Position numbers and translations under genes: made by a program
Notes under the pieces: generated by a model
Seen by the model: only the letters and a program-made list of their open reading frames with translations
Told to the model about the DNA's origin: nothing
The model's database searches: none
NCBI GenBank assembly: GCA_016840165.1
Contig: JAEOSU010000018.1
Coordinates: 28,902 to 92,901 of the forward strand
Direction of reading: 5' to 3'
DNA length: 64,000 nucleotides
DNA from: Promethearchaeota archaeon
GTDB lineage: Archaea; Asgardarchaeota; Lokiarchaeia; Sigyniarchaeales; SOKP01
Shown here: positions 6,131 to 29,389 of the stretch, piece after piece
How the letters are laid out: every line of letters starts with the position of its first letter
Numbering within the stretch: the first letter of the stretch is position 1

Positions 6131-7543
6131 TTAGATATAAGTTTTAATTAACTCTCTTAAATTTTTTGTGAGATTTGGTAGTGACTTTTCAATTTTTTCT
6201 ACTCTTAATGCTTTTTCCATGAATAATAATAAATATAGATTATAATTATCTACATTTATTTTTTGAAATACAATTTTTTTAGATTGTTCCGAAATACCGG
6301 AAGTAACAATAAAATCTTTCTTTAATATCTTAAACTCTTTAAATGTCTTATATAAAGTCGTAAAGTGTGGTGCTGAGATTTCAAAAACCTTGTTAGCAAT
6401 ATCAGATTTTGAATAATTCGATAAGATGATACCATTTTCATTTAAGAGAAGAATCGCATCAGAATTAACCTTGTCAGAAAACAAACGTAATTGGTTCCGG
6501 AATAATTCACGATTAGGGCTTAGTCGTGAAAGTCCAAATGAATAAGCGGAAATAAGGCTCCAATGATCAAAAATCGATGTTTGAAAGATTTTTATGAAAA
6601 AGGTATGAGAACTTTTGCCTATCTCATTGGTTATATATTCAATATTTTTTTTGATCTCTCTTGATTTCTTTAGATCTGGATCAAACTTATTGATACATAC
6701 TACTATAGGCGGAAACTCATCTAAATTTTTAAGGGAATTGAGAATGTTCTGAAATAATGAAACCGATTCTTTAATTCTTTCAGTATCTTGGACGTCAATA
6801 AAATAAAACAATAAATCCACATTATACAAATAGACTTTTCCTTGTTCAAGAAACTTTTCTCGATATTTTTTTTGCCCCCCTAAATCCCATATAGATATTT
6901 GGGAGTTTTGTTCCTCAAATAATTTCTCCTCTGTTCTTGAAACTCCCTTTGTGGGTAAAGTTTTTATAATTTCAGAGTATCTCTTCTTTACCGCAAGTAA
7001 GAAACTTGTCTTTCCAGCTCTATCCAAGCCTGTAAATAAAATTTTTAATTGTCTTTTTATCGAAAAAGGATCTTTCAGTTCATTGGTAAACTCAAGTAAA
7101 TCTTTTTTAAGTTGATTCATAATAGCTTTATTCTCCTCTAATGTATTTCGAGCTAATATTTTTGTAGCAGTATTATCGATGATGACCCGCAAATATTTCA
7201 TGTTTTCATAAAAAAATATTTTATTTGTCTCTTCAATTAAAATGGTGATAGTTGCTGCTTTTGCGTTTCCTCTAGCTGCTTTATCAGGGATAAGAAAAAA
7301 ATATGTTAATCCATTTAATTTTAAATCGGGAAAAGGTAAGATTCCGAAATAATTAATTCCTTCTATAGTTGTACCGTTTTGATAAACAGAATCGCCCATA
7401 AGTAGACTTATAGTTTTCATAGCGACTAATAATCGCGCTGACTCATCTAAGTCTTCTGGCCAATAGATTATAGGAGTAGGTCCGTCATCATCAAAAAGGC
7501 TATATACAATTGACTTAATTATCTCTCTTTTCATTTCCGTCAT
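6131..7543 (-). CDS. Longin/uDENN (FLCN/SMCR8-like) - Rag/Arf-like small GTPase - roadblock-like fusion protein
   Basis: G1 GLDRAGKTS, G2 PTKG, G3 DLGGQ, G4 NKFD, G5 TSIFD. N-terminal SLFDDDGPTP and PDKAARG. C-terminal DAILLLNENGIILS roadblock strand-turn. Confidence 0.85.
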   Translation of the reverse strand: MTEMKREIIKSIVYSLFDDDGPTPIIYWPEDLDESARLLVAMKTISLLMGDSVYQNGTTIEGINYFGILPFPDLKLNGLTYFFLIPDKAARGNAKAATITILIEETNKIFFYENMKYLRVIIDNTATKILARNTLEENKAIMNQLKKDLLEFTNELKDPFSIKRQLKILFTGLDRAGKTSFLLAVKKRYSEIIKTLPTKGVSRTEEKLFEEQNSQISIWDLGGQKKYREKFLEQGKVYLYNVDLLFYFIDVQDTERIKESVSLFQNILNSLKNLDEFPPIVVCINKFDPDLKKSREIKKNIEYITNEIGKSSHTFFIKIFQTSIFDHWSLISAYSFGLSRLSPNRELFRNQLRLFSDKVNSDAILLLNENGIILSNYSKSDIANKVFEISAPHFTTLYKTFKEFKILKKDFIVTSGISEQSKKIVFQKINVDNYNLYLLLFMEKALRVEKIEKSLPNLTKNLRELIKTYI

Positions 7544-7684: not shown

Positions 7685-9478
7685 TTATTTTATAAAATTA
7701 AGACTTTTTATTTCAGTTTTAATCCAAATCTGCCTTAAAAATTCTAATATAGCTTGCTTGGTAGTATAGTTTTGCTTGAATTCTTCTAAACTCACTTTTT
7801 CAGTTGCTCCATGTGAAATTAATGAGTGAAATTTCCCTTGGTTTTCAAGTTTTTTAAATAAATCCATTTCGATATCCTTATCAAATTTTGTAGAATTAGA
7901 ATAAGAATCCATTGAAATATGTGGAAAATGACGTTTATCCAATTTAATAAATCGATCTATTGCCCTTTGTGAGGTATCTTCTATGAGAGCAAACTTTCTC
8001 TTATAAATTTTTGAAAATTCATTACAGCTATTAGCCATTTCAGTAACAATGTGCATACCGAGATCAAGTGAGTTAGAAGTCTCATGCATCATGTTATTGG
8101 TCAATATTTTAACCGCCTCATTTAAACCGATAAAACCAATACATAAATCTTGATTTTTTAATTGATAAAGATTAGTTCCCTCAATTAAACTATTACATAA
8201 CGGTAAATGGTTGGTCGAAAGGCGCTTTTTGATGATTTCATATTTTTTGTTCAAGATAGTAGCACATAAGTGCAATTTTTGATTTAAATCCTCCATAAAT
8301 AGCGTTTCATCTCTGTTATTAAATGCAATTCTAGGTAGGTTTATCGAGATCTTCTGAAGAATTCCATGGTTTAAATAACCGTCTAATGTTTTATTCTCTA
8401 TAGTATCATTTAGTTTAAATAATGAAGAATTTAACAGATAGGGGGCTTGATTAGTATTAATCTCATTGATAACTTTTATAAAAGAATCTTGGTATTTACT
8501 TAACCATTCACTACTACAAAATATTTTATGGACCGGGTATCGAAAAGGATGAGAATAAAAGTCACCCTCTGTAAAGATATCAATGAAACAATCAAAAAGT
8601 TTTAAGCATTCAGAGGAAAAGTCTGAGTATATTCCGTCAACTTTTCCATGAATCCCAATAGCAGTCTCATCTAAGAAGGGTTCAACTATAGTAGGATAAC
8701 ATTCTAATGATGATTTAAGATATCGCTTACCAGAGATGGCTGATAAATGATTTATTTCATATATAAAGCTTTTAAGTTCATTTCTAATCTCTGAATCGGA
8801 TAAGTTACCAACTAAGGGTGCTAAAAAAATAGTTAAATGATTAAAGCTTTGGCATCCACAAAATTCATTTTGAATTATACCTGTCCAATTTGCGAGCTGA
8901 TTCAAGGCTTCTCTTAAATTCTGAGGCGGTTTTACTTTATAAGAGAAGCTCTTAAGATCAGTGGGCGGAATTCCGTATTTCAATATGATCCTTGGATCCC
9001 AGGTATGCTCATACGGTCTTAAATCAAAATACTTAAGCTGATGAATGTAGATATCTCCAAATAAATGGGCTTTTGATTCCTCATCAGTTAAAATTCGTAA
9101 TAATGTATATTCTTCTGCCAATTGGTTAGCTGCCCAGTGATGAATCTTCTCGGGATTAATTACACTTCTAATTACATCTTTTTCTACTTTTTCCAAGATC
9201 TCCTCATAATCCATCAGTGGCATTCCTATGCGGGTATAGAGTTTCCTTTCTTTTTCATAATGATTTTCAGATAAAATAGAACAAACGATCTCTCTTATAT
9301 GGGGTCCAGAAAGGAACTTTATTCCAGAACTTATTATTCTTCTAACTACTAATTCTGTGACGTTTTTAGCCTCTTCTTCTGGCATCCCTGTTTCTTTCAT
9401 GATGCTCTCAAAAATTTTAGAGGCATCAAAATCAACGACATCTCCCTCGGATCGAAAAACTTTAGGTAATAAGTGCAT
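7685..9478 (-). CDS. ATP-cone plus anaerobic ribonucleotide reductase (NrdD)-like protein, apparently catalytically degenerate
   Basis: ATP cone (VFRSEGDVVDFDASKI...GPHIREIVC), HLFGDIYIHQL, SINLPRIA, IGFIGLNEAV and YSNS. No C-terminal CxxC site or RxxGY. ATG at 9478 (MHLLPKV) preferred over the track start at 9556. Confidence 0.8.
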   Translation of the reverse strand: MHLLPKVFRSEGDVVDFDASKIFESIMKETGMPEEEAKNVTELVVRRIISSGIKFLSGPHIREIVCSILSENHYEKERKLYTRIGMPLMDYEEILEKVEKDVIRSVINPEKIHHWAANQLAEEYTLLRILTDEESKAHLFGDIYIHQLKYFDLRPYEHTWDPRIILKYGIPPTDLKSFSYKVKPPQNLREALNQLANWTGIIQNEFCGCQSFNHLTIFLAPLVGNLSDSEIRNELKSFIYEINHLSAISGKRYLKSSLECYPTIVEPFLDETAIGIHGKVDGIYSDFSSECLKLFDCFIDIFTEGDFYSHPFRYPVHKIFCSSEWLSKYQDSFIKVINEINTNQAPYLLNSSLFKLNDTIENKTLDGYLNHGILQKISINLPRIAFNNRDETLFMEDLNQKLHLCATILNKKYEIIKKRLSTNHLPLCNSLIEGTNLYQLKNQDLCIGFIGLNEAVKILTNNMMHETSNSLDLGMHIVTEMANSCNEFSKIYKRKFALIEDTSQRAIDRFIKLDKRHFPHISMDSYSNSTKFDKDIEMDLFKKLENQGKFHSLISHGATEKVSLEEFKQNYTTKQAILEFLRQIWIKTEIKSLNFIK

Positions 9479-9681
9479 TTTGTCGGAACCTTTTTTATAT
9501 ACTCTGTTTTTAGATATTATCTCTAATATTATTATTATAGAGATTTTAAAAAACAATTTATTAACACATTAAAGAGATGTGTATTTATAAAGAAATATTA
9601 GAAAAATTTTGCTAAAATAAGATTTAGATTGTTATTACCTTGGTAACAAAAATGAAATGGAAAATAAAATTTTAGTAATTT

Positions 9682-12664: not shown

Positions 12665-13645
12665 TTATTTAAACAAAATTTCGGTCATTATATTAGCGAA
12701 TGAATCAAAGTCCTCTTTATTAATTGCCGGATCCCCTTTTAACATAAGTATATAATATGGTGTTTTGACATCTCGGATATTTAATTTCTTAAATATAAAG
12801 TTTCTCCCAAATCTTTGTACAATCATCTTACCTTCTTCTTCAATTCTTCCCGGTATGACTTGTGTAAATTGGAAACTGTCATTTAAGGTTAGAAAGTAGG
12901 GAGTGGATGCAGATAAAAGATTTTTAGTTTCCTCATCCTTGTAAAAATATCCAATGATGAGAGAGTTATCATCAATAACCACCACTCCCTCAGAATCTAC
13001 TTTTTTGGCAAATTCATCTATAGTTTTACTAATTAATTCCGCTTTGGGATATAAATTTAATAAAATTTCTGACATTGCGCTAATTATAGAATTTAGATCA
13101 TAAATCGATGTATTATAGTAATAAATGCGCTTATAATCTACAGAACGTCTCAGTTTTTCTTTAAGATCTATTTCTAAACTTTTAAATTCGTTCATTGCAT
13201 TTCGTCTTAATGCTGGGTCATATTTGTGGAAAAAGACATATATAGGAGGTTCAATTTCAAGTTTTCTAAATTGTTCAACCACATCTTTGAAGTAACTCAT
13301 AGCTTCTGGAATTCGTGGTTTGTTTTGAATGTCAATCACATAGATTGCGATCTCTGTTCCATCGAAATACTTCCCTGGGTTCTTAAGATAACTAATTCTA
13401 TAACTGATTTGTCCTCCCAAATCCCATTCGGCTATTTCCCTGCCTAAAAACTCAAAAATACGTCTTTGGGCTCCTCTAGTAGGTTTTAAAAGAGCTATTT
13501 TAGAGAATTCTCTTTGAAGGGCTAAAATTATTGAAGTCTTCCCTGCAGCATCTAAACCTGTAAACAATATTTTCGATTGAGGCTCAGGTGGCTCTTTTTT
13601 TTCTTTTGAAAGGTATTGAATTTCCAAAATAAATTCACCTTGCAA
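12665..13645 (-). CDS. Rag/Gtr-like small GTPase with C-terminal roadblock-like domain
   Basis: GLDAAGKTS, PTRG, DLGGQ, G4 HKYD and G5 TSIYD (Rag-type HKxD/TSIxD); C-terminal EGVVVIDDNSLIIG. The true start may be TTG at 13627, which follows an AGGTGA. Confidence 0.85.
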   Translation of the reverse strand: MQGEFILEIQYLSKEKKEPPEPQSKILFTGLDAAGKTSIILALQREFSKIALLKPTRGAQRRIFEFLGREIAEWDLGGQISYRISYLKNPGKYFDGTEIAIYVIDIQNKPRIPEAMSYFKDVVEQFRKLEIEPPIYVFFHKYDPALRRNAMNEFKSLEIDLKEKLRRSVDYKRIYYYNTSIYDLNSIISAMSEILLNLYPKAELISKTIDEFAKKVDSEGVVVIDDNSLIIGYFYKDEETKNLLSASTPYFLTLNDSFQFTQVIPGRIEEEGKMIVQRFGRNFIFKKLNIRDVKTPYYILMLKGDPAINKEDFDSFANIMTEILFK

Positions 13646-13792: not shown

Positions 13793-14350
13793 CTAAAAAA
13801 TTCCTTCTGAACTTTTGTATGTCAAGTTTTTATCTACAATAAGCTGATTAAGTTTATTTAATACCTCTTCTGGAGATTTAGCTTCGTGAATAATATCAGT
13901 TCGTCTATCGTCAATTTTTTGAGAGGCAATCTTTGAGGACCACCCTTCAATATTACTCATAGCAATTATAGGTTTTTCATAAATCCATGCAAAACACAAT
14001 TCAGAAAGTGTTCCCGCTTTCCCTCCTATAGCAATACAGGCATCTCCCGCGAGAATGACTACAATGTTTCTAGCTTGTGAAAAAGGTACTGGGATCACAA
14101 TATCAATATATTTATTTGCAAACTTTTTTTCCTTAAAAGGAATGATTCCAATCGTCAATCCTCCCGCTTGTTTTGCTCCTTCACAAATTGCTTCCATTAC
14201 ACCAGATAATCCTCCGCAAGCAATCGCGTAATGCTCTTCTGCTAATAATCTTCCAAGAGATATAACTGTCTTTTTAGTTGGTTCATCGATCTCACTAGTT
14301 CCAATGACTGAAACGGTTGCTTTAATATCTTTTTTATAATCGAAATTCAT
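13793..14350 (-). CDS. TIGR00725 family SLOG/LOG-like Rossmann-fold protein
   Basis: CGGLSGVMEA, TIGIIP, ARN.V and IGGKAGTLSEL. Confidence 0.85.
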   Translation of the reverse strand: MNFDYKKDIKATVSVIGTSEIDEPTKKTVISLGRLLAEEHYAIACGGLSGVMEAICEGAKQAGGLTIGIIPFKEKKFANKYIDIVIPVPFSQARNIVVILAGDACIAIGGKAGTLSELCFAWIYEKPIIAMSNIEGWSSKIASQKIDDRRTDIIHEAKSPEEVLNKLNQLIVDKNLTYKSSEGIF

Positions 14351-14492
14351 TATTAATTGTTCTTATTCCGAATTATTAATTAAATTAATGATTTGATTAT
14401 TCTGGAATCTATGCGATCATTAGTCAAAGGAAAAGTAAAATTTCCAAAAATCAAACCTACTCCCGAACTATAGTCATCTTAGATTTTTACTA

Positions 14493-15194
14493 CTACTTAG
14501 GATTATAACGGAGGAATTCAGGGATTCTCTCACCGCACTCCGGACAGAATGCCAATCCTTCATCAATAGCCTTTTTACAGTTAGGACAAGCAATCTTCCC
14601 CTTTAAAACTGGTTGAGATGAGGGTTTTATACTGGTTAGAGAGTCTCCTTTTACCTTTTTCGTCTTATCCGTATTTCTACGCTTTAATACTATAATTATT
14701 ATCATAAATGCTACAAATCCTAAAATAATGGTAAAAAGACTATACCCCATTCCTAAAAATATATCAAAAGTCTCACTATAAGTGAAAAGACCAGTAATAT
14801 TGAGCGTAAAATGATATTCCCCTGGAAAAGTCGTAATTAAAGGGGTTACTCTAATAGTTAATAGATGCGATTGATTATTTCCTAAAATTTCCATAGTTTG
14901 ATTAATATTGATAAAATATCGATCCCCTGATTGCTCCGTTAAAGCATAATGAATCTGTCCGAAATTGGCAGACGATACATTTATAGCAATATGACCTTCA
15001 ATAATGATCAAACCCGGTTTGATGATATTTAGAGTTATATTTGACCCTAACTGGGAGGTGTTCAGTAAATTCTCTTCAGAATAACTGAAATGGTTATTAA
15101 TAACAATAAATTTAGATTGAAAGTTGATAAAAAAGCAAGATAAAAATAAAATGCTAAAAAAATATATTAGAAATATCCGTTTTTTATTCCACAT
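14493..15194 (-). CDS. Single-pass membrane protein with beta-rich extracellular domain and cytoplasmic double zinc ribbon
   Basis: Signal-like N-terminus, TM helix followed by KRR, C-terminal CPNC...FCPECG. Confidence 0.65.
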   Translation of the reverse strand: MWNKKRIFLIYFFSILFLSCFFINFQSKFIVINNHFSYSEENLLNTSQLGSNITLNIIKPGLIIIEGHIAINVSSANFGQIHYALTEQSGDRYFININQTMEILGNNQSHLLTIRVTPLITTFPGEYHFTLNITGLFTYSETFDIFLGMGYSLFTIILGFVAFMIIIIVLKRRNTDKTKKVKGDSLTSIKPSSQPVLKGKIACPNCKKAIDEGLAFCPECGERIPEFLRYNPK

Positions 15195-16170: not shown

Positions 16171-16264
16171 AATAAAATCATATCTAAACTTATTAATAAT
16201 ACATCATACATATTTAATTCAATAATTATCGTTTTAAAAATTAATTAATCACAAAATATCCATA

Positions 16265-17770
16265 ATGGAAGAGTTAATTAAATCTTCAATTATTAAATCA
16301 ATAGTATTTTCGATTTATGGAGAGTTAGGACCTCAAGCACTATATATATGGCCTGAAATCATAAAGAAGGATACTAATAGTTCCAATTCTTCATTTAATA
16401 TTGAGGAAAATATTGTATATCTAACCAATAGAGATGCAACTCAAATCGCTATTAAAAATTTGAGTTTATTAATTGGAGATGGTAGCATTTTAGAAAAATC
16501 TAATTTAGATGAATATCGATATTTTGGGATTATTCCCTTTCCTGATTATAACTTAACCTCATTAACATTTTTTCATTTTACGAATGTTAATTATTCAGAA
16601 AAACCCTTACCATCAGCATGTTCGATTTTAATCGATGAATCGAAACGAAGTTTTTTGTATAATAATATCGAGAGATTTAAAGAATTGATTGTAGATTTTT
16701 GTACAACATTAGATAAAGAAAATGCAAAGGAACTTAAGTCTCAAAAAGAGCTCGAATCTTTATTCAAAAACCTTATCAATGAAATTATTTTAATAGAAAA
16801 GGAACCTACAACGCCTATCTCCGCTCATCGAAAACTTAAAATCATTATGGCAGGTCTTGATGATTCTGGAAAAACTTCCTTTTTACTTTCAGTAGATAGA
16901 AAGTATTCTAAATTAATAGGACTTAAACCTACCAGAGGAGCAAAAGTCAATTCGATTGAAGCTTTAGGAGCAACCATCTTTATATGGGATTTAGGCGGTC
17001 AGTTGGGTTTACGTAAAAAATATCTAAATAAAGCTCAATTATATCTCTATGAGGCGGATCTCTTGTTTTATTTTATTGATATTCGAAATAAAGCTAGATT
17101 TAAAGAAAGTATTGAGTATCTAACCAAGATTAAGAACGTTCTAGATGGTTTTGAACAATCCACACCAATTATTTTTATTTTTTCAAAAGGCGATCCTGAT
17201 ATAATTGATTCTAAAGAGATCAAAAATAATATCAAACTAATTACTACGGAATTAGAAAAATTAACTCCCAATGGTAAACCAGAGATCTACAATACAACGA
17301 TATTTCAATTATTTTCCATATTGAGAGCTTTTTCATCGGGAATAGCAAAACTAAGCCCCAACCGAGATTTAATAGAGTTAAATTTAAGTAGATTTTCCGA
17401 ACAAACCCAAACATTTTTAACTTTACTTTTAAGTATGGATGGTCTTGTGCTAGCAGATCATTACACCACCGAAGCATTGAAACTAACTAAAGTGCCGAAA
17501 TCTGAAGAAATCCTTAATATATTTGAAATAACAGCCCCTCAATTTGCAATGTTATTCAAAATTTTTTCAAAATATAGGGCTGTTAAAAAAGATGAGGCAA
17601 TATTCAAGGTCGCAAAATCAGTCATCTTTTTTAAAAGAATTAGGATTTCCGAAACTGATATGTTCCTTTTATTTTTATTAGACGATGAAAAGAAAAAAGA
17701 TCAAATTAATGAGAATTTATCTAGCTTTCTAAATCAAACTCAAGATCTTCTTCTTCGCTATATTTCCTAA
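16265..17770 (+). CDS. Longin/uDENN - Rag/Arf-like GTPase - roadblock-like fusion; paralogue of 6131-7543 with degenerate motifs
   Basis: SIYGELGPQA, YFGIIPFPD, G1 GLDDSGKTS, PTRG and DLGGQ; deviant G4 SKGD and G5 TTIF. Shares LSPNR and FEI.AP.F with 6131-7543. Confidence 0.85.
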   Translation: MEELIKSSIIKSIVFSIYGELGPQALYIWPEIIKKDTNSSNSSFNIEENIVYLTNRDATQIAIKNLSLLIGDGSILEKSNLDEYRYFGIIPFPDYNLTSLTFFHFTNVNYSEKPLPSACSILIDESKRSFLYNNIERFKELIVDFCTTLDKENAKELKSQKELESLFKNLINEIILIEKEPTTPISAHRKLKIIMAGLDDSGKTSFLLSVDRKYSKLIGLKPTRGAKVNSIEALGATIFIWDLGGQLGLRKKYLNKAQLYLYEADLLFYFIDIRNKARFKESIEYLTKIKNVLDGFEQSTPIIFIFSKGDPDIIDSKEIKNNIKLITTELEKLTPNGKPEIYNTTIFQLFSILRAFSSGIAKLSPNRDLIELNLSRFSEQTQTFLTLLLSMDGLVLADHYTTEALKLTKVPKSEEILNIFEITAPQFAMLFKIFSKYRAVKKDEAIFKVAKSVIFFKRIRISETDMFLLFLLDDEKKKDQINENLSSFLNQTQDLLLRYIS

Positions 17771-26944: not shown

Positions 26945-27988
26945 ATGATAAACCAAGATATTATTACCGCTGTGTTGTATATCCAATTAGATGATGAAGT
27001 AGGTCCTAATCCCGTTGTAACTCTTCCTAAGGATTTTGCTAATGTAAATAAGATGCATGTCAGTATTAAAGTGATTACGGTACTTTCGGGAGAACATGGT
27101 AATGTTCCAAAAAAATTGGTCATTCTACCGTTTCCTTCTCTAAAATTAAAAGGAATTATTAAATATATTAAGTGGGACGATCCTAAACGAAGAGGAGGCA
27201 TTGGTCAGGCAGCAATAGCCATTTTATTTGAGGATATAAACGATGTTATCTTTTACAAATATTTTGAACAATTGAGCGACTCTTTCGAGGAAATAGGAAA
27301 AATCTTTAGAAATTTGGAAGAAAATAGATCTAAATTGGAAGAAATCGAAAAAGAAGTTAAGAATTTAATTAATAGAATCAAAACAGTACTTAATGAGCTA
27401 CGGATTGATGAAACATCTCAATCTGAATCAAAAGAATTTCCAAAACTTAAACTTAAAGATTCAACAATGATAGATTATAAATTCAAAATCATTGTGTTAG
27501 GAGATCCGGGAGTGGGAAAAACCTCGCTTATATTAAGATACACTGATAACGCTTTTCGAAGAAGTTATATTCCTACCTTAGGGGTGCACGTTAGTGATAA
27601 GATCTTTAAAATAGATGATGCCGTTGTTCAACTTGTAATCTGGGATTTAGCAGGACAACAAAAATTCGATACAATGCGTCATCAATTCTATGTTGGTTCT
27701 GATGGTTTTATTTTGGTATTTGATTTGACTAATCTCAATTCTTTTGAGAATTTATCTAACTGGTTTCTAGATATACAAAATCAATTCAAGGATCAAACTA
27801 ACTTAATGGGTTATGTTATCGGAAATAAATGTGATTTAAGAGAGCAAGTTAAAATTAAATCGGAAAATGCAAAAGAATTAGCCTCTTATCTAAACCTTAA
27901 CTTTATTGAAACATCAGCTTTATCTGGTTTAAATGTTAATAAAGTTTTTACACAATTAGCAAAATCTTTATATACTTCATTTACTTAA
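26945..27988 (+). CDS. Longin/uDENN - Rab-like small GTPase fusion
   Basis: N-terminal LDDEVGPNP and DDPKRRGG; GTPase motifs GDPGVGKTS, YIPTLG, WDLAGQ, GNKCD and ETSA. Confidence 0.9.
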   Translation: MINQDIITAVLYIQLDDEVGPNPVVTLPKDFANVNKMHVSIKVITVLSGEHGNVPKKLVILPFPSLKLKGIIKYIKWDDPKRRGGIGQAAIAILFEDINDVIFYKYFEQLSDSFEEIGKIFRNLEENRSKLEEIEKEVKNLINRIKTVLNELRIDETSQSESKEFPKLKLKDSTMIDYKFKIIVLGDPGVGKTSLILRYTDNAFRRSYIPTLGVHVSDKIFKIDDAVVQLVIWDLAGQQKFDTMRHQFYVGSDGFILVFDLTNLNSFENLSNWFLDIQNQFKDQTNLMGYVIGNKCDLREQVKIKSENAKELASYLNLNFIETSALSGLNVNKVFTQLAKSLYTSFT

Positions 27989-28336: not shown

Positions 28337-29389
28337 TTGGATAGAGCGATCATTCATTCCATAGTATACACTGAATTTAATGATGAATTAGGTCCAAATC
28401 CACTTTTTTGTCTTCCACAAGATTTGTCAGAGAACATTTCAATGCTTGTAAGCATTAAAACGGTTACGATCCTCTCAGCTGATCATGGTTTTATACCAGA
28501 TTCGCTTATAATTATTCCTTTTCCCTCGTTGAAATTAAAAGGTTTAATTAAATATATAGAAAGAGACGACGAATCAAGACGGGGAAAAGTTGCTCAATCT
28601 GCAATCACATTTTTATTTCGAGAAGTTGAAGATATCCTCTTTTATAAATATATGAACTATTTCAATTCTCCTTTTAATGAGACCACCCGTAAAATAGTTG
28701 AATTAGAAAATCAAAATCAGGATAAATCGCTGATATTTAGAGAAATTGAGAATTTAAAAGATAGTATTCACGCATTATTAAAAGATTTTAGGATTAAAGA
28801 ATTTCAGCAATTCTCTTATAAAGAATTTCCTGAAATAAAAAAATTAACTGAAAAAGAAGTTGATTTAAAGGCGAAAATAGTAATTATTGGAGATCCAGGA
28901 GTCGGAAAAACAAGTACTATTTTACGTTTTACTGATAATGCATTTAAAAGAAGCTATATCCCCACTATGGGCACAAACATAACTGAAAAGAGTTTTAGAG
29001 TTAAGGATAATATAATAGAGTTGATTCTATGGGATTTAGCAGGACAAAGTAAGTTCGAACTTATGCGAAAACATTTTTATCAAGGCGCTGAAGCTGTTAT
29101 ACTTATTTTTGATTTAACAAATCCTAAATCCTTTCAAAGTGTAATTCAGTGGTTTGAAGATATCGAGAATAACTTAATACTTGAGCATGAGCTTATTGGA
29201 TGTCTCTTTGGAAACAAAACTGATTTAACTAATGGACGTAAAATTGGTACTAATGAAGCACAAAAATTAGCCTCCCAGTTAAATCTAGATTACTTTGAAA
29301 CTTCGGCTCTAACAGGAAAAAATGTAGAAAATGCATTTTATAAGATCGCAGAGAAAATTATTGAAGTAAGAAAGCCAGATTTAGCATAA
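28337..29389 (+). CDS. Longin/uDENN - Rab-like small GTPase fusion (tandem paralogue)
   Basis: TEFNDELGPNP and DDESRRGK; GTPase motifs GDPGVGKTS, YIPTMG, WDLAGQ, GNKTD and ETSA. TTG start after GAGG. Confidence 0.9.
   Translation: MDRAIIHSIVYTEFNDELGPNPLFCLPQDLSENISMLVSIKTVTILSADHGFIPDSLIIIPFPSLKLKGLIKYIERDDESRRGKVAQSAITFLFREVEDILFYKYMNYFNSPFNETTRKIVELENQNQDKSLIFREIENLKDSIHALLKDFRIKEFQQFSYKEFPEIKKLTEKEVDLKAKIVIIGDPGVGKTSTILRFTDNAFKRSYIPTMGTNITEKSFRVKDNIIELILWDLAGQSKFELMRKHFYQGAEAVILIFDLTNPKSFQSVIQWFEDIENNLILEHELIGCLFGNKTDLTNGRKIGTNEAQKLASQLNLDYFETSALTGKNVENAFYKIAEKIIEVRKPDLA

Follow-up and report, generated by a model that had tools for sequence, protein, structure and literature searches.

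We analysed a 64,000-nucleotide stretch of the genome of a Promethearchaeota archaeon of the class Lokiarchaeia (contig JAEOSU010000018.1, positions 28,902 to 92,901; hereafter the window). It encodes two related proteins, A and B, whose longin domains differ in the loop between strands 4 and 5, where B carries a candidate arginine finger that A lacks. As judged from the sequences of relatives, this loss of the arginine is a fixed lineage trait of the order, and the arginine-less (Arg-less) lineage exists beside an arginine-bearing (Arg+) one. In eukaryotes, Rag GTPases are controlled by the longin GTPase-activating protein (GAP) pairs FLCN-FNIP, NPRL2-NPRL3 and SMCR8-C9orf72, in which only one subunit contributes the catalytic arginine. 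The same asymmetry is found here between two archaeal paralogues that fuse a GAP-type longin, a Rag-like GTPase and a probable roadblock tail, and the Arg-less form has been kept across the order.

The relationship between the two proteins is evident over their entire length, as A and B align end to end with 33% identity (E = 7e-88). The shared architecture and motifs that a preliminary description, made from the letters of the window, had reported are all present: IIKSIV (A 9-14, B 8-13), YFGI[IL]PFPD (A 86-94, B 65-73), LSPNR (A 363-367, B 341-345) and FEI[TS]AP[QH]F (A 420-427, B 387-394). The genes were said to lie about 9 kb apart on opposite strands, and the distance is 8.7 kb. Both proteins match the Pfam family Gtr1_RagA (PF04670) well above its curated cut-off of 22 bits, A with 59.9 bits (residues 192-418, covering profile positions 1-230 of 232) and B with 90.6 bits. 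Both also pass the curated cut-off of the Arf family (PF00025), for which A scores 60.3 bits, and since the Arf and Gtr1_RagA scores of A are nearly equal, its GTPase domain appears to stand between Arf-like and Rag-like proteins. Evidence on the tail of A comes from a phmmer alignment pairing A 189-432 with RagA 6-250, and from an alignment to Protein Data Bank (PDB) entry 8yl2 that reaches residue 407 of A; the closest Atlas clusters are Gtr1_RagA fragments (score 0.87), which we treat as a lead only. These sequence comparisons support the view that A and B are true paralogues sharing a three-part layout. Coordinates of the features discussed are collected below.

Table. Features of the window, numbered from its first letter.
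Feature	Position	Strand	Description
Gene A	16265-17770	+	501 residues, intact open reading frame; longin / Rag-like GTPase / roadblock-tail; Arg-less paralogue
A longin domain (residues 1-175)	16265-16789	+	AlphaFold2 model, mean predicted local distance difference test (pLDDT) 87.5
A GP motif (G22-P23)	16328-16333	+	Strand 1-2 hairpin, between modelled strands
A strand 4-5 loop NVNYSEKP (residues 107-114)	16583-16606	+	Replaces D-K-A-A-R-G-N of B; without arginine
A GTPase motifs	16853-17305	+	G1 GLDDSGKTS 197-205, G2 T223, G3 DLGGQ 242-246, G4 SKGD 307-310, G5 TTIF 344-347
A C-terminal tail (about residues 358-501)	17336-17767	+	Apparently homologous to the Rag C-terminal roadblock domain
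Gene B	6131-7543	-	470-residue open reading frame; same layout as A; Arg+ paralogue
B A90-R91-G92	7268-7276	-	Strand 4-5 loop of longin; candidate arginine finger
Gene C	12665-13645	-	326 residues; Rag-like GTPase-roadblock, no longin; between B and A; Pfam Gtr1_RagA
Gene D	26945-27985	+	347 residues; longin + Ras/Rab-like GTPase fusion; Pfam Ras, E = 3e-51
Gene E	28337-29386	+	350 residues; longin + Ras/Rab-like GTPase fusion; Pfam Ras, E = 7e-49; tandem with D

The difference in the longin had been described as the replacement of a DxxARG loop, and this was borne out by the alignment, in which FTNVNYSEKPLP of A (residues 105-116) stands against D87-K-A-A-R91-G-N of B. In the AlphaFold2 models, the replacement loop of A lies between strands 97-106 and 115-124, and strands 76-86 and 94-104 flank the arginine loop of B. 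Structure comparison, which gives ranges only, aligns B 7-150 with NPRL2 5-137. The position of R91 is compatible with that of R78 in NPRL2 if the extra residues of B fall in its disordered 50-64 loop; this correspondence is arithmetic and involves no residue-level match to R78 or to R164 of FLCN.

In order to determine how widely the two forms occur, we used A and B as queries against 121 genomes of the class, 103 of them belonging to the same family as the window, and collected 107 full-length proteins; these come from about 60 genomes of the order, among them that of the cultured Promethearchaeum syntrophicum MK-D1. Within the family, orthologues of A are present in nearly all relatives at 45-76% identity and those of B are 57-81% identical, and the sister families of the order, to one of which MK-D1 belongs, have one B-type protein (42-44% identical to B) and one A-type protein (approximately 33% identical to A). 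In five genomes of other orders, the only matches to B were GTPase-roadblock proteins of approximately 300-330 residues that have no longin. The ARG loop is kept in 52 of 52 B-type proteins and is absent from 55 of 55 A-type proteins, where the loop is variable, was deleted in one case and contains no conserved arginine. In a library of 1.84 billion proteins, R-G was found in all nine B-like representatives, and the loops of A-like and intermediate forms are variable. On these alignments, the A longin has no conserved candidate finger arginine and R91 of B is invariant.

We reconstructed a phylogeny from the GTPase and tail regions only, leaving out the longin domain, which carries the trait, and rooted it on longin-less paralogues. 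The A clade and the B clade were recovered with Shimodaira-Hasegawa-like approximate likelihood ratio test support of 96 and 84, respectively. Because this tree, obtained without the longin, separates clades that match the presence and absence of the arginine, it indicates a single old duplication, after which the arginine was lost on the stem of A.

The two genes also occur together. Among the 103 family genomes, 85 have both A and B, 9 have only A, 5 have only B and 4 have neither, which is about what is expected from assemblies that are roughly 90% complete. We considered the single-gene absences as a case against co-occurrence and rejected it: six of the seven examined (G102, G086, G087, G098, G009 and G022) end at a contig edge where the missing gene is due, and only the absence of A from genome G030, discussed below, is a real deletion. 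The one-sided absence in G092 falls in a scaffold with runs of N. The preliminary description had allowed that the Arg-less form might be a sporadic variant that does not co-occur with the Arg+ form; this objection fails, because the arginine has been lost throughout a conserved lineage, which is found together with the Arg+ lineage across the order.

Evolutionary constraint is distributed differently in the two proteins. When the same genomes are compared, mean pairwise identity of the GTPase domain is similar (0.64 for A, 0.67 for B), but A is considerably more divergent in the longin (0.51 vs 0.73 within the family) and in the tail (0.55 vs 0.70); between families, longin identity is 0.31 for A and 0.51 for B. 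The longin is the best-conserved domain of B. These values indicate that constraint on A is relaxed in the longin and the tail, its GTPase domain being as constrained as that of B, and a relaxed longin in A beside a highly conserved one in B fits a non-catalytic longin in the former and a catalytic longin in the latter. The faster evolution of the longin and tail, together with the loss of the gene in one lineage, might be taken to mean that A is a decaying duplicate without a function of its own. We consider this most improbable, since at least 55 genomes carry the gene as an intact, full-length reading frame, its GTPase domain equals that of B in conservation, and 40 columns are invariant across the A clade. 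A pseudogene reading was rejected on this conservation, which indicates that A is a maintained gene.

In its sequence, the GTPase domain of A has the motifs expected of a functional guanine-nucleotide switch, namely the P-loop, the switch-I threonine, DxxGQ, and the lysine and aspartate of G4; G1, the switch-I threonine and DxxGQ are conserved across the family-level A clade. The preliminary description had listed SKGD, as a deviant G4, and TTIF, which in B are NKFD and TSIF, in proposing A as a candidate non-catalytic partner. The letters are as given there, but we rejected both motifs as signs of a dead GTPase. G4 is [ST]KxD throughout the A clade and retains its lysine and aspartate; TTIF is confined to the copy in the window, nearly all other A-type proteins having TSIF. 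G4 of sister-family B-type proteins is HKxD. The textbook consensus is (N/T)KxD and eukaryotic Rags have HKxD, so that SKGD can hardly be called deviant.

In the family of MK-D1, A-type proteins show a different G3, WDIPG followed by Q, K or S. The MK-D1 protein itself (WP_147663364.1; L095:11555-13078, forward strand) has WDIPGK for DxxGQ, with the catalytic glutamine replaced by lysine, a G4 of TKVD, and R-K-R in the strand 4-5 loop. The sequences suggest that in this family the GTPase itself may be altered too, and that the GTPase of the MK-D1 protein may be more degenerate than that of the copy in the window.

In the AlphaFold2 models, the longin of A consists of strands 10-19, 22-29, 85-92, 97-106 and 115-124 and helices 55-70, 125-152 and 161-174; the longin of B was modelled with a pLDDT of 85.0, and both show the longin order strand-strand-helix-strand-strand-strand-helix-helix. 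The top structural match of both is PDB entry 8yqg, the longin of a Lokiarchaeota Roadblock-Longin protein (Z = 17.4 for A, with VIA-align, and 18.1 for B). Among eukaryotic proteins, the longin of A matches Lst4 (Z = 12.6), C9orf72 (12.5), FLCN (12.0) and NPRL2/3 (10.5-10.7; NPRL2 10.5), and across the SMCR8-C9orf72 entries its scores range from 9.1 to 12.5. Over the models of A and B, longins of GAP complexes reach Z = 10.5-13.4 and generic SNARE, TRAPP and adaptor longins approximately 8-10, a modest margin. The models thus support a longin fold for the N-terminal domain of A, which among eukaryotic structures most resembles the longins of GAP complexes (Lst4/FNIP, FLCN, C9orf72 and NPRL2/3). 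Profile searches against PDB sequences returned no match for the B longin alignment at E values up to 10, and for the A longin alignment a single, marginal match to 8yqg (E = 0.018); homology to FLCN, NPRL2 and SMCR8 therefore rests on fold and motifs and not on sequence. B has a weak match to the Pfam family Folliculin over residues 79-142, which span the arginine loop (E = 0.005, below the family cut-off).

Motifs provide a further connection. A GP motif beside the arginine finger has been reported to mark FLCN, NPRL2, SMCR8 and C9orf72, to be missing from FNIP2 and NPRL3, and to occur together with an arginine in some Asgard longins (PMC12290439). In A and B, GP is found between strands 1 and 2, at the position described for the GAP longins in that study. 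G22 and P23 are invariant in A-type proteins, and the equivalent G21-P22 of B is present in all B-type proteins counted (with no variation in the longin alignment and next to none in the full-length one). With its GP and finger SMCR8 resembles B, and C9orf72, which has GP without a finger, resembles A (PMC12290439). Because A keeps the GP motif that FNIP2 and NPRL3 lack, C9orf72/SMCR8 is the nearer analogy. The likeness to eukaryotic longin GAP pairs put forward in the preliminary description is upheld at the level of fold, C9orf72/SMCR8 being the closest of the pairs named there.

The eukaryotic systems and 8yqg differ from A and B in several respects. C9orf72 and SMCR8 have DENN modules and act on separate target GTPases (Arf/Rab), whereas the longins of A and B are each fused to their own Rag-like GTPase and tail. 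FLCN-FNIP2 (Lst7-Lst4; a GAP for RagC/D) and NPRL2-NPRL3 (RagA/B) are single-finger longin dimers that do act on Rags, but their GAP and substrate reside on separate polypeptides. RagA/B-RagC/D (Gtr1-Gtr2) share with A and B the Gtr1_RagA domain, the order of a GTPase followed by an apparently roadblock-type tail, and the retention of two diverged paralogues together, but lack an N-terminal longin. Since the duplication that produced A and B arose inside one Lokiarchaeial order, the pair is a parallel to RagA/RagC and not its ancestor. The longin in 8yqg has the GP hairpin and an aligned loop segment without arginine, but its source protein has no GTPase domain.

We also considered whether A could retain GAP-type activity by means of another basic residue. 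R128 (window positions 16646-16648) is located near the beginning of helix 2, just past strand 5. All 31 aligned A-type proteins have it, and it aligns with an arginine of 8yqg; it is not conserved in B, D or E. In addition, an arginine occurs somewhere in the loop of 13 of the 47 A-type proteins of the family and of 4 of the 8 from sister families, so that either R128 or scattered loop lysines and arginines might serve. In the standard longin sheet, however, the strands are ordered 2-1-5-4-3, which puts the GP hairpin and the strand 4-5 loop at one end of the sheet and R128 at the other. The loop arginines are inconsistent in position, the copy in the window has none, one relative has no loop at all, and the A longin evolves fast. 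We therefore regard retained GAP-type activity as improbable.

In our interpretation, which we hold as the most likely one but with somewhat less than even confidence, A pairs with B, the two being the Arg-less and Arg+ members of an old, order-wide paralogue pair. The longin of A would be unable to supply an arginine finger, and contacts between the proteins would be made longin to longin and roadblock to roadblock. The resulting complex would contain two GTPase domains and one arginine finger, a layout resembling C9orf72-SMCR8 or FNIP-FLCN placed on a RagA-RagC-like dimer, in which stimulation would reach only one nucleotide site of the two. Such a heterodimer would be the most economical mechanism. 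The more specific proposal of a dedicated A:B heterodimer, in which a one-finger, C9orf72/SMCR8-like longin pair sits atop a Rag-like GTPase-roadblock pair and the whole is built from two polypeptides, is possible but doubtful.

Complex prediction provides weak support for pairing. With the alignments of A and B made in this analysis, full-length A and B obtained an ipSAE score of 0.51 (median of three runs), the best of three controls scoring 0.00; at least 92% of contacts are shared between the runs, with partner pLDDT of at least 75. The pass mark is reached by 58 of 80 solved complexes and by 2 of 110 mismatched pairs, and passes with scores of 0.60 or lower comprise only 7 of the 80 solved complexes and both of the passing mismatches. 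Since similar complexes have been solved and A and B are paralogues, the pass may stem from the predictor having learned such complexes, or from nothing more than family likeness. The preliminary description had looked to a comparison of the heterodimer with both homodimers; the heterodimer side came out weakly in favour, and the scores cover A:B and its controls. Rate covariation (mirror-tree residuals across 16 genomes) was non-discriminating, as the value for A-B (0.24) is no higher than those for A-AIR synthase (0.76), A-MtrH (0.35) and B-MtrH (0.32).

A number of observations weigh against pairing. Genome G030 (99% complete; locus L135, G030:C51 approximately 13917-14638) keeps the gene block described below and an intact B, but A has been cleanly deleted, the site being occupied by 720 nucleotides between the AIR-synthase-like and MtrH-like genes with no detectable remnant; A is thus dispensable for the retention of B in at least one lineage. 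The two genes lie on opposite strands and do not share a transcript. Synteny spans the whole block, possibly reflecting inherited gene order and not selected linkage. D and E are Arg+ longin-Rab fusions without an Arg-less counterpart. Finally, 8yqg, the closest solved longin, which like A has no loop arginine, was deposited as a dimer of one sequence, and in Tran et al. 2024 (PMC10933270) the longin-containing GTPases of MK-D1 gave models of typical longin and roadblock homodimers.

Several of these points suggest instead that A and B act independently, each as a homodimer or homo-oligomer. B would then be a self-contained switch with its own arginine fingers, and A a GAP-dead variant whose GTPase is slow or regulated by another protein and whose longin serves as a platform for dimerisation or docking. 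The retention of B after deletion of A in G030, the homodimeric structure 8yqg and the published homodimer models all agree with this explanation, as do the eight chains of one sequence in 8yl2, the MK-D1 orthologue of C, and the absence of an A-B rate signal above that of control gene pairs. On the other hand, both lineages have been kept together across the order since one old duplication, the predicted complex scored above its controls, if weakly, and the asymmetry between A and B parallels all three eukaryotic longin GAP pairs. Independent action is in our view unlikely, but it has to be taken seriously.

The genomic neighborhood offers a weak argument for pairing, in that B, C and A remain in one gene block. 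The block consists, in order, of B, genes for a NERD-like and a zinc-ribbon protein, C, genes for a SLOG and a second zinc-ribbon protein, and an AIR-synthase-like gene; about 90 nucleotides from the last of these, A starts on the other strand. It is kept, with insertions, from the family of the window to that of MK-D1, and C is retained in all relatives examined. A and B have thus long been neighbours, yet this is weak evidence of a functional link, because the whole neighborhood is conserved. The spacer between the divergent A and AIR-synthase-like genes (16171-16264) measures 94 nucleotides, compared with 93 and 85 in the distant relatives G078 and G007, respectively, and this near-constant length suggests a shared divergent promoter region. 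Adjoining B is a full-length gene for NrdD, the class III ribonucleotide reductase with an ATP-cone (7685-9556, reverse strand); in several relatives (for example L092 8277-8711 and L132 1986-2471) only an open reading frame of approximately 145-160 residues matching its N-terminal part is found.

The neighborhood raises the alternative that the roadblock partner of A is C, or another GTPase-roadblock paralogue, with B or D/E perhaps acting as a GAP in trans. The co-oriented run that holds C begins 94 nucleotides from the start of A, on the other strand, an arrangement found in the family and still in MK-D1; the genome, moreover, encodes several GTPase-roadblock paralogues. C matches 8yl2 over its full length (E = 2.9e-90). 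This entry contains eight chains with one sequence and appears to represent the MK-D1 orthologue of C; from an alignment in the supplement of Tran et al. 2024, it looks like WP_147663357.1. Crystallisation of this orthologue as multiple copies of one sequence speaks against C as the partner, which would also leave the longin of A without a longin partner, and we consider such an arrangement to have only a small chance of being correct. A hidden Markov model scan for the longin over the whole genome gave four matches only, A, B, D and E, all of them in the window and within 23 kb. The longins of D and E are of the same folliculin type, with GP and an R-R-G loop, and A is the sole Arg-less protein of the four.

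Longin-GTPase fusions in Lokiarchaeum have been reported since 2016, and the three-domain LGR layout of the MK-D1 Rag-like GTPases has already been published (Tran et al. 2024, PMC10933270). The LGR GTPases of MK-D1 belong to the same family and the same gene block as the proteins analysed here: WP_147663355.1 is of B-type and WP_147663364.1 of A-type. That study lists the former as LGR and the latter as XGR, with an N-terminal domain of unknown kind, and models the longin-containing GTPases as homodimers only. In the present analysis, the N-terminal domain of A-type proteins is modelled as a longin and the split into Arg+ and Arg-less forms is found clade-wide; the term 'arginine finger' does not occur in that paper. 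Our literature search found no paper on an Arg+/Arg-less pair and none describing structures 8YQG or 8YL2. The novelty is thus the Arg+/Arg-less split within an already published kind of protein.

A and B may represent an archaeal precursor of the asymmetric pairs of regulators that govern nutrient signalling in eukaryotes. If A and B pair, they would provide a two-protein model of the Rag and longin-GAP machine with orthologues in the cultured MK-D1, and biochemistry could address directly whether the GAP acts in cis or in trans and how pseudo-GAP subunits originated. Without pairing, A would still represent a clean case in which one domain of a fusion protein has lost its catalytic residue and the GTPase next to it remains under full constraint. 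Should the pair prove to be a dedicated heterodimer, Lokiarchaeia would have independently reached both asymmetries of Rag signalling, the combination of GTPases in unlike states and the one-fingered longin GAP, and would offer a minimal version of the Rag machine that is open to study in a cultured organism.

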